From the NCBI RefSeq assembly GCF_028641065.1, contig NC_073388.1:46686001-46750000 (forward strand): a stretch of 64,000 nt of DNA, in the 5' to 3' direction. The stretch comes from Leucoraja erinacea (taxonomy: Eukaryota). Positions 27,040 through 30,680 of this stretch are shown here, piece after piece. Each line of letters begins with the position of its first letter. The first letter of the stretch is position 1. Position numbers and translations under genes: made by a program. Below the pieces are notes generated by a model that saw only the letters and a program-made list of their open reading frames with translations, was not told the origin of the DNA and did not search any database.

Positions 27040-27455
27040 TGTTCTGCCCTGTAGACTATAGTGCCTTTCATTTAAAATGGAGATGTATTTATTCTTTACC
27101 TTGGACGTTCCTTCCACGTTTAGCTGGTAGATGCGTAGAGATTTCCCTATGCTGCGGGTGTTTTGGCCCTGGTAAAGGCCGTATGGGTTACGAGTCACGA
27201 GTTACAGAGGAATACATGGTCAAATGTGACACCAAAACAGTACATCTATTTGTTTGTGCACATCGGGTTGATTGCATCGGTCGAAGCAGGGTGGACCACG
27301 TGAAAGTTGCACTCTCCCACGCAATCATACTGAGGCTTTTCCCTGGGGGCATCAACCCCATCCACCCAGTAACTGATGCTGTCCTGGCCTGGCATGGGTG
27401 TCTACCCTTGATCTACAACTTTAGGCTGTGCACGCCATACACAAGAAGAAGAAGA
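27040..27455. mobile_element. Ingi/Vingi-like LINE remnant: inverted 5' end (about 27040-27320, -) joined to the 3' end (27321-27455, +)
   Basis: Minus strand: ribozyme-like leader, then an APE endonuclease start (LRIYQLNVEG). Plus strand: FPGG...H...W C-terminus and a (GAA)n tail. Confidence 0.7.
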
Positions 27456-29329: not shown

Positions 29330-29586
29330 GACATATTAGATTTTATGCTCACCGAGTCTGCACCAACCACACTAACACTACCCTACACACACTAGGGACA
29401 ATCTTTTACATTTACACCAGGGCAATTAATTTACCAACCTGTACGTCTTTGGAGTGTGGGAGAAACCAAAGATATCGGAGAAAACCCACGCGGGTCACAG
29501 GGAGAACATACAAACTCCGTACAGACATAGTCAGGATCAAACCCGGGTCACTGGCGCTGTAAGGCAGTGGCACACCTTGCCGCCCC
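29330..29586 (-). mobile_element. HE1-like SINE
   Basis: Reverse complement of the tRNA-like head, V-domain and tail. Confidence 0.8.
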
Positions 29587-29648
29587 TAATCTGTTTGAAT
29601 AACATGCAAAACAAAGCTTTTCACTGTACCTCAGCACGTGACAATAAC

Positions 29649-29785
29649 CTTCTTCTTGCATATGGCGTGCACAGCCTAAAGTTGTAGGTCAACTTGTTCT
29701 ATTTGATCTATTTGTTTATGCACGTCGGGTTGATTGCATTAGTCGAAACAGGGTGGACCACGTGAAGGTTGCAATCCTCCACCCC
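29649..29785 (-). mobile_element. ~137-nt non-autonomous Ingi/Vingi-type retroposon
   Basis: TSD caataa at 29642-29647 and 29786-29791; (GAA)n tail; 5' and 3' parts match the two ends of the remnant at 27040-27455. Confidence 0.82.
29732..29785 (-). ncRNA. Predicted minimal HDV-like self-cleaving ribozyme
   Basis: GGGGUGG-AG-GAUUGCA-ACC-UUCACGU-GGU-CCACCCU-G-UUUCGA-C-UAA-UGCAAUC: 7-bp P1 with a G1.U wobble, 7-bp P2, 3-bp P3, 7-nt L3, J4/2 CUAA. Confidence 0.78.
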
Positions 29786-29814
29786 CAATAATGTAACTAA
29801 ATTTAAACCTACAA

Positions 29815-30680
29815 CAGGTATCAAAGGTATCAAAGGTATTTTATTGGTCACTTTCACATACACCTAGGTGTAGTGAAGTGAAATGCTTCTTGCCATTTTG
29901 CAGCACATAAAAAAGGAATACAGACATAACATTTATAAGAGTTTTAAACATAAAGAACATCTCCCCACAATGGTTCCCATTATGAGGGATGGCACAAAGT
30001 CCAGTCCCCAACCCCAGTTCACCCACAGTCGGGCCTATTGAGGCCTCCACAGTTGCCTCTACGGAGGCCCGATGTTCCAGGCCATTCTCGCCGGGTGATG
30101 TTGCTCCGTCGTCGGGAGAGTCCTCCCAGCGGCCTGGGAACCCTGGAACGGCCGCTTCCGTACTGGAGGCCGCGGCTTCCGAAACCAACAAGGCCGCGCC
30201 GGTTGGAGCTCCACAACTGGCGATCTCATCTAGAGATCCCAGGCTCCCGGTGTAAAGTCAGCGCCGCCGCCCGCAGCTGGTCGCTCCACAGTCCCGCAGC
30301 TCCGCGATGTTTTCCTCAGCGATCTTTAGCTCACCGGAGCTCCAGCGCGGCGACCCAGGCAAGGCATCGCCCGCTCCGCGATAGCGCTCCAGCGCTGTGC
30401 CGCCGCCGAAGCCGAGGTTCTGGGCGGTCCCCGACAGGAAACGCAGCTCCAGGCCCGCTGGTAGGCCGCGAGGACGGGTCGAAGCTGCAGCCCGGAGAAA
30501 AGCTGCCTCTCCGACCAGGTAGGGACCCTGAAAGGTAGTTTCCCAATCCCCCCACACCCTCACCCCCCACATAAAAAAACTGTAGACCTCCAAACAAAAC
30601 ACTTTAACTAACTAAAATAAAAATAAAAAGATGAAAAGACAGACAGCTGCTGGCTGGGCAGCCATGCACAGGACAGCGTG
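29815..30680 (-). mobile_element. GC-rich non-autonomous LINE derivative (Rex1/L2-like ends)
   Basis: (GATACCTTT)n tail with AATAAA on the minus strand, CpG-rich body, related to 40731-41560. Confidence 0.6.

Follow-up and report, generated by a model that had tools for sequence, protein, structure and literature searches.

A 137-nt derivative of a Vingi-like LINE that begins with a predicted P4-less HDV-like ribozyme

The 64-kb window, i.e., the whole stretch of DNA analyzed here, carries on its minus strand, at 29649 to 29785, a 137-nt segment made up of little more than an apparent HDV-like ribozyme and the 3' end of a LINE, and we asked what such an element is, where its two ends come from, and how it could be copied. 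The first-pass annotation, made from the sequence alone, had taken it for a SINE without a Pol III promoter that cuts itself out of host transcripts and is copied by a Vingi-like reverse transcriptase (RT). We consider it quite probable that the element arose from a Vingi-like LINE by internal deletion, that its 5' HDV-like fold likely cuts before the first nucleotide, G1, and that the LINE RT copies it via the 3' tail. The element has both ends of one autonomous LINE and no ORF. The lack of Pol III features was borne out, no box A/B pattern being present in the element and no tRNA gene in the window, while the name SINE was not: the element is an internal-deletion LINE derivative (SIDE), and the classical SINE classes (SINE1/2/3/U) were rejected because these take their heads from small RNAs that bear Pol III boxes, which is not the case here.

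The fold takes up the first 54 nt (29732 to 29785, minus strand), with the predicted cut 5' of G1 at 29785, and forms a double pseudoknot. The 5' strand of the 7-bp P1 (29779 to 29785) pairs with 29750 to 29756, starting with a G1·U36 wobble; that of P2 (29770 to 29776), seen as an inverted repeat, pairs with 29732 to 29738; and a descriptor search recovered both helices. P3 and L3 lie at 29757 to 29769, as placed by the descriptor and by relatives, the strands 29769 to 29767 and 29759 to 29757 forming the 3 bp of P3 around the 7-nt L3 (29766 to 29760), which has the conserved U, C, and G. P1.1 is the single pair C22-G37 (G37 at 29749), a C-G pair in 7/7 relatives. In place of P4 there are just six bases, U-UUCG-A, between G37 and C44 (29743 to 29748), where relatives have 14 to 33 nt. 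J4/2 (29739 to 29742), recognized by its conservation, starts with the putative catalytic C44 at 29742, followed by UAA, so that both the C and the A of an HDV-like core are present; the catalytic role of C44 is assigned by analogy with known HDV-like ribozymes. The helices, L3, P1.1, the P4 remnant, and the C at 29742 were all found where the first-pass annotation had put them.

The rest of the element could be traced as well. What had been described as a linker of about 40 nt is not anonymous, since nucleotides 55 to 80 (29706 to 29731) are, by comparison with the LINE, the remainder of its 5' segment, within the 5' untranslated region (UTR). The deletion joint follows, with a 13-nt filler (29693 to 29705) that is absent from both LINE ends and resembles a repeat of the bases preceding it. 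The remaining stretch (29649 to 29692) is the last 44 nt of the LINE, comprising the final codons and stop of its ORF (the ORF of locus L119 ends here), a short 3' UTR, and an (AAG)n tail; it is the likely recognition site of the RT. The boundaries of the whole, which belongs to subfamily A, the LINE-like type, were set by genome copies and the LINE match. A target-site duplication (TSD) indeed abuts G1, as annotated (29786 to 29791, with the downstream copy at 29642 to 29647), though in this copy it is only 6 bp exact versus 10 to 13 bp in most copies. In the adjoining segment (29400 to 29648), the focal element is preceded by the tail of another repeat, at whose end it sits, next to a presumable tRNA-type SINE head on the minus strand.

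We then determined whether the fold exceeds what chance would give. The HDV descriptor matched once in the window on both strands (128 kb), at the focal fold, and in 0/240 shuffles of other test regions. A covariance model built from seven Vingi-like 5' ends, with the focal family excluded, scored 29732 to 29785 at 29.3 bits (E 3.5e-6), the top of the window. No Rfam family matched the focal element at the gathering score; below it, HDV-F-prausnitzii covered exactly 29732 to 29785 with a weak score of 16.1 bits (cut-off, 44; E 3.1). The Rfam models include a P4 stem, which is lacking in the focal fold. In nested folding the segment was the same as its shuffles (z -0.05), which is uninformative and expected for a pseudoknot. 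The ensemble pair probability of P1 was 0.91 in the 54-mer alone; in the focal copy, under the nested model, it was 0.44 to 0.46 with the flank versus 0.89 to 0.91 without it. Competition with P1 comes from a 9-nt inverted match that links the tail (29681 to 29689) to the upstream flank (29807 to 29815) and that may be a chance occurrence.

The element belongs to a large mobile family, as had been claimed, with a common joint, TSDs, and a variable tail. A genome search with the 137-nt query gave 3202 first-look candidates, and the 40 of these that were scored had identities of 95 to 100%, almost all over the full length. An 18-base ribozyme core had 5685 exact occurrences in the genome (reversed control, 0) and was kept in 36/85 short-type loci of a sample picked by the tail alone (the first 90 of 3447 tail matches), from which we estimate some 13,400 copies, or roughly 13,000, the sample being from one contig. 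Those 90 loci comprised 79 short elements with a ribozyme head, 6 truncated or damaged ones, 4 LINE 3' ends, and 1 tail only. Copies were dispersed over all large contigs. To locate the 5' ends we scored TSD ends at any position from -8 to +70, which was feasible for 68 of the 79 short elements, and in 65/68 the TSD ended no more than 2 nt from G1, in agreement with the prediction of the first-pass annotation that family 5' ends coincide with G1. TSDs of at least 7 nt abutted G1 in 25/30 of the best copies versus 31/870 mismatched flank pairs, and TSD length was mostly 10 to 13 bp. The base before G1 was T in 47/74 cases (background, 31%; p 5e-9). Between TSD and G1 there were 18 extra bases in all (T9 A5 C3 G1). 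From L1, a cap-derived extra base is expected to be G, and the mostly non-G bases seen here argue against such an origin. We infer that the pattern at G1 arose when the RT ran off its template at a 5' end that was fixed and probably uncapped.

The LINE that supplied both ends was found with patterns that kept the ribozyme and excluded the short middle. These gave 604 matches, among which one alternative continuation recurred in 16 loci and in several of them led into an endonuclease frame. The parent is a decayed LINE of about 3 kb with endonuclease and RT and no RNase H, present as near-whole decayed copies at L107 (G000:C7) and L108 (G000:C1). L107 starts at G1 with a fold of the same design as the focal 54 nt (L107:489-542), has a 91% match to element nucleotides 1 to 80, and carries the same tail at its 3' end; the 3' match of the LINE covers element nucleotides 94/102 to 137. 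The element is thus LINE nucleotides 1 to 80, the 13-nt filler, and the last 44 nt, and the very small 54-nt fold, which had been presented as a feature of the short element, is real and inherited from the LINE. Open pieces of the parent score as Exo_endo_phos and RVT_1. Its nearest intact relative, P0001 (contig of 3344 nt), has a single ORF of 1019 amino acids and is 75% identical; among 37 aligned full-length relatives, 0 have an RNase H domain and 8 have zf-RVT. Vingi elements are defined in PMC13708176 as compact, with a single ORF encoding an APE endonuclease and an RT and no RNase H. The domains of the parent agree with this definition (its own copies being broken, the single ORF is taken from P0001), so that, with the clade name based on domain content, it fits a Vingi-like LINE. 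The Vingi-like partner postulated by the first-pass annotation therefore exists in the genome and has both ends in common with the element; that its RT does the copying would follow from the shared tail.

Another route to the partner, through Pfam PF14529, was set aside: the 30 loci that it gave belonged to other LINE families, 29 of them falling in one cluster; 0/30 started with the focal ribozyme, and one held an unrelated inserted copy. For the RT region there were 207 candidates; among the best 40 to 45, which were scored, the top ones were 85 to 86% identical to L108 over the full length, and no intact young parent was found among the best RT matches read. In the PDB the LINE protein had no close relative, the best match being L1 ORF2p (E 3e-22). 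A 5'-inverted fragment of the parent lies in the window itself (27080 to 27452), its 5' part at 27080 to 27320 on the minus strand and its 3' part at 27329 to 27452 on the plus strand; it is of the twin-priming type, and inspection by eye showed a 10-bp duplication. In several further LINE 5'-end loci, too, the tail lies upstream on the opposite strand.

Variation among copies was followed in 80 short copies, leaving out of the 90 the 4 LINE ends, 1 tail only, and 5 truncated or rearranged loci. They fell into type B (51 copies), type A, the focal type (5), and type C (5), with 19 unassigned. The LINE 5' ends carry type A bases (A32 in 11/12 readable and U45 in 12/13), which makes it likely that subfamily B arose from short copies acting as templates. 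The common variants inside the fold, at nucleotide 8 (J1/2), A32G (turning U-A into U·G), and nucleotide 45 (a free J4/2 base), break no pair, and C44 was kept in 77/80 copies. Covariation within the family, which the first-pass annotation had proposed as a check, was uninformative, the common variants in the 80 copies being single-sided with no double changes. The descriptor was still passed by only 37/80 copies, which we counted against cleavage. Copies diverged from the majority by about 4 to 5% outside CpG. Divergence was lower in the unpaired core (12/707) than in stems (97/2518), which we set aside as evidence, since base composition differs. With its copies decayed and no intact parent ORF found, the family is probably inactive now. 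In five loci (L063, L075, L088, L089, and L176) the ribozyme and the tail are the same and the middles different, which suggests more than one independent deletion event.

Covariation appeared only across related LINE families. In the same genome, HDV-like folds that differ in sequence stand at the 5' ends of other Vingi-like families (L214 and L226). Metagenomic relatives amounted to 75 loci, 21 of which had an ORF start and at least 100 upstream bases. The descriptor matched in 5/21 (reverse strands, 0; shuffles, 0/240), the covariance model added L232, L241, L250, L274, and L290, and reading L251 by eye brought the loci with a fold upstream of the ORF to 11/21; in none of the remaining 10 was it seen. 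Across P1, P3, and P1.1 in seven relatives, 98.7% of the cells were paired, with double changes at 6/11 pairs; this pairing score was reached by 0/500 shuffles, and slid controls gave 38 to 58%. The seven were picked for good alignment and pairing, so the test leans toward structure, and P2 stood outside the pair count. The catalytic C was invariant in 11/11 aligned relatives. A P4 stem was present in all of these relatives and absent only in the focal LINE family and its short derivative. Judged by these sequence comparisons, the HDV-like fold is a feature of the Vingi-like clade. In one metagenomic locus (L235:425-560) the ribozyme is apparently interrupted within L3 by about 70 inserted bases. 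A second Vingi-like family of the genome, 46 to 49% identical to P0001 (L212, at G000:C34:17697857-17700832, L214, and L215), shows almost uninterrupted frames and an end of the poly(A) type; it may be younger than the focal parent.

In the mechanism that we favor, a longer transcript spanning a copy, probably starting in host DNA, would fold at G1, and its upstream RNA would be cut off by Mg2+-dependent self-cleavage. The 137-nt product, with an uncapped 5' end, would be stable behind the pseudoknot, the LINE protein would be bound by its tail, and insertion would proceed in trans by target-primed reverse transcription. Given the short template and the 5' end set by the fold, most new copies would be full length and carry the ribozyme again, by which short copies could become templates, as in subfamily B. 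Self-cleavage is predicted by analogy with R2 SIDEs, L1TcRz, and the P4-less phage ribozymes. Counted against it were the one P1.1 pair, the missing P4, and the flank-tail pairing of the focal copy, as well as the fact that an internal promoter, if precise, would give precise 5' ends too. The single P1.1 pair and the absence of a P4 stem may mean slow cleavage, of the kind known for the CPEB3 ribozyme.

The main rival reading, which we regard as possible and clearly the less probable one, is that the first 80 nt form a dual 5' end, an internal Pol II promoter combined with a ribozyme that trims or protects the end. It is compatible with cleavage and not exclusive of it. The 5' 77 nt of L1Tc and NARTc are such a combination, Pr77 being promoter and ribozyme in one in the sister Ingi clade (PMC4035085, PMC3383444), and bipartite LINEs are expected to be Pol II transcribed (Kojima 2018, PMC5786205). 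The short element retains 26 nt of LINE 5' UTR past the fold, and the spread of copies over all large contigs shows no tie to one transcribed target, whereas G accounts for only 1/18 of the extra bases at the 5' joint. An improbable reading is that the fold is a noncleaving or barely cleaving relic, retained because a compact 5' structure serves RNA stability or second-strand synthesis. The R2 ribozyme fold does confer cap-like protection in engineered templates, and the loss of the P4 stem and the single-pair P1.1 would suit a relic; however, the parent LINE and distant relatives alike retain the catalytic C and the A of J4/2 as well as the L3 core and G1·U, and P4-less HDV-like ribozymes cleave in vitro (PMC10879173). 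An ordinary Pol III SINE with a chance-like pseudoknot at its head can be dismissed as very unlikely, since, for all the SINE-like size, TSD, and LINE-derived tail and the lack of an Rfam match at the cut-off, the head is identical in origin to the 5' end of the LINE and the independent model recovered the fold.

Cleavage of an internally deleted LINE at a 5' HDV-like ribozyme, the reading that we prefer, has close parallels. In Drosophila, R2 SIDEs and R2/R1 hybrid SIDEs (Eickbush and Eickbush 2012, PMC3414825) likewise join a 5' HDV-like ribozyme to a LINE 3' end through an internal deletion and are copied in trans, and in vitro cleavage is on record for R2 SIDE ribozymes built in this way (PMC3414825). 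According to the same source, they are rare, site specific in 28S rDNA, dependent on R2 or R1 protein, and equipped with P4, whereas the focal element is dispersed in about 13,000 copies, Vingi-like, and P4-less, with its cleavage predicted. NARTc/L1Tc and RIME/ingi of trypanosomes, from a sister clade, have about 77 to 80 nt of 5' and 30 to 44 nt of 3' sequence in common with their LINEs, a cut predicted at +1, and TSDs of about 11 to 12 bp (PMC3383444, PMC4035085). L1Tc differs in that it encodes RNase H, has a ribozyme with P4, and has shown promoter activity, and the focal element differs from NARTc and RIME in having almost no middle. Internal-deletion derivatives of Vingi-1_EE and bipartite LINEs are of the same clade type and origin (Kojima 2011, cited in PMC5786205). 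R2 SIDEs and NARTc/RIME are thus precedents for the design of ribozyme plus LINE 3' end, which limits the surprise.

The fold itself resembles the minimal P4-less HDV-like or theta ribozymes, which form the same double pseudoknot without P4 at about the same size (Kienbeck 2024, PMC10879173). Those belong in nearly 99% of cases to Caudoviricetes phages and often abut tRNA genes, whereas the focal fold heads an animal retroelement with no adjoining tRNA, which places it outside the phage-tRNA setting. The accessible part of Kojima 2018 (PMC5786205) names Vingi among the clades that make bipartite elements and not among the ribozyme-bearing ones, and HDV-like ribozymes of lamprey, lancelet, and sea urchin appear in the accessible part of PMC8256844 with no named element. 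In the literature searched we found no description of the focal family, of a P4-less HDV-type fold in an animal retroelement, or of ribozymes on Vingi-like LINEs, and these last two would be new; an earlier Repbase or Dfam entry for the family is possible.

A minimal HDV-like fold so far seen mainly in gut phages would thus have an animal job, that of marking the 5' end of a retroelement. The deletion also defines the smallest RNA that the Vingi protein likely needs, 80 plus 44 nt, which bears on Vingi-based gene-writing templates (PMC13708176); the accessible part of that paper mentions ribozymes for R2 only. If active, the thousands of sense intronic copies would cut host pre-mRNA, a selective load. 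It is an evenly balanced proposition that Vingi LINEs are an unrecognized source of animal HDV-like ribozymes, with the 13,000 P4-less copies as about the smallest self-processing retroelement and the CPEB3 ribozyme as a domesticated Vingi-like 5' end.

The link to the mammalian CPEB3 ribozyme (RF00622) starts from the 7-nt L3, which is identical in sequence in the focal fold, and from the single C-G pair of P1.1. CPEB3 differs in having a P4 stem and a single intronic locus, and the focal element has no RF00622 match. At L226, the 5' end of a sister LINE, the Rfam CPEB3 model scored 56 bits versus a cut-off of 35. Among the 55 CPEB3 matches listed for the genome, 48 were at or above the cut-off, and Vingi-like ORF sequence lay within 500 bases after 9 of the best 25. 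With such look-alikes at the 5' ends of sister LINEs, the origin of CPEB3 becomes testable, and their sequence likeness favors the view that the CPEB3 ribozyme descends from a LINE of this kind. Near-copies of CPEB3 begin the Vingi-like LINE families of L322, L325, L307, and L226. L322, a deleted LINE copy of about 260 nt (L322:1511-1770, G000:C19:8183463-8183712), has 43/46 first bases equal to the Rfam CPEB3 consensus, and in the family of its 3' end Vingi-like ORF sequence lies upstream in 11/19 loci.
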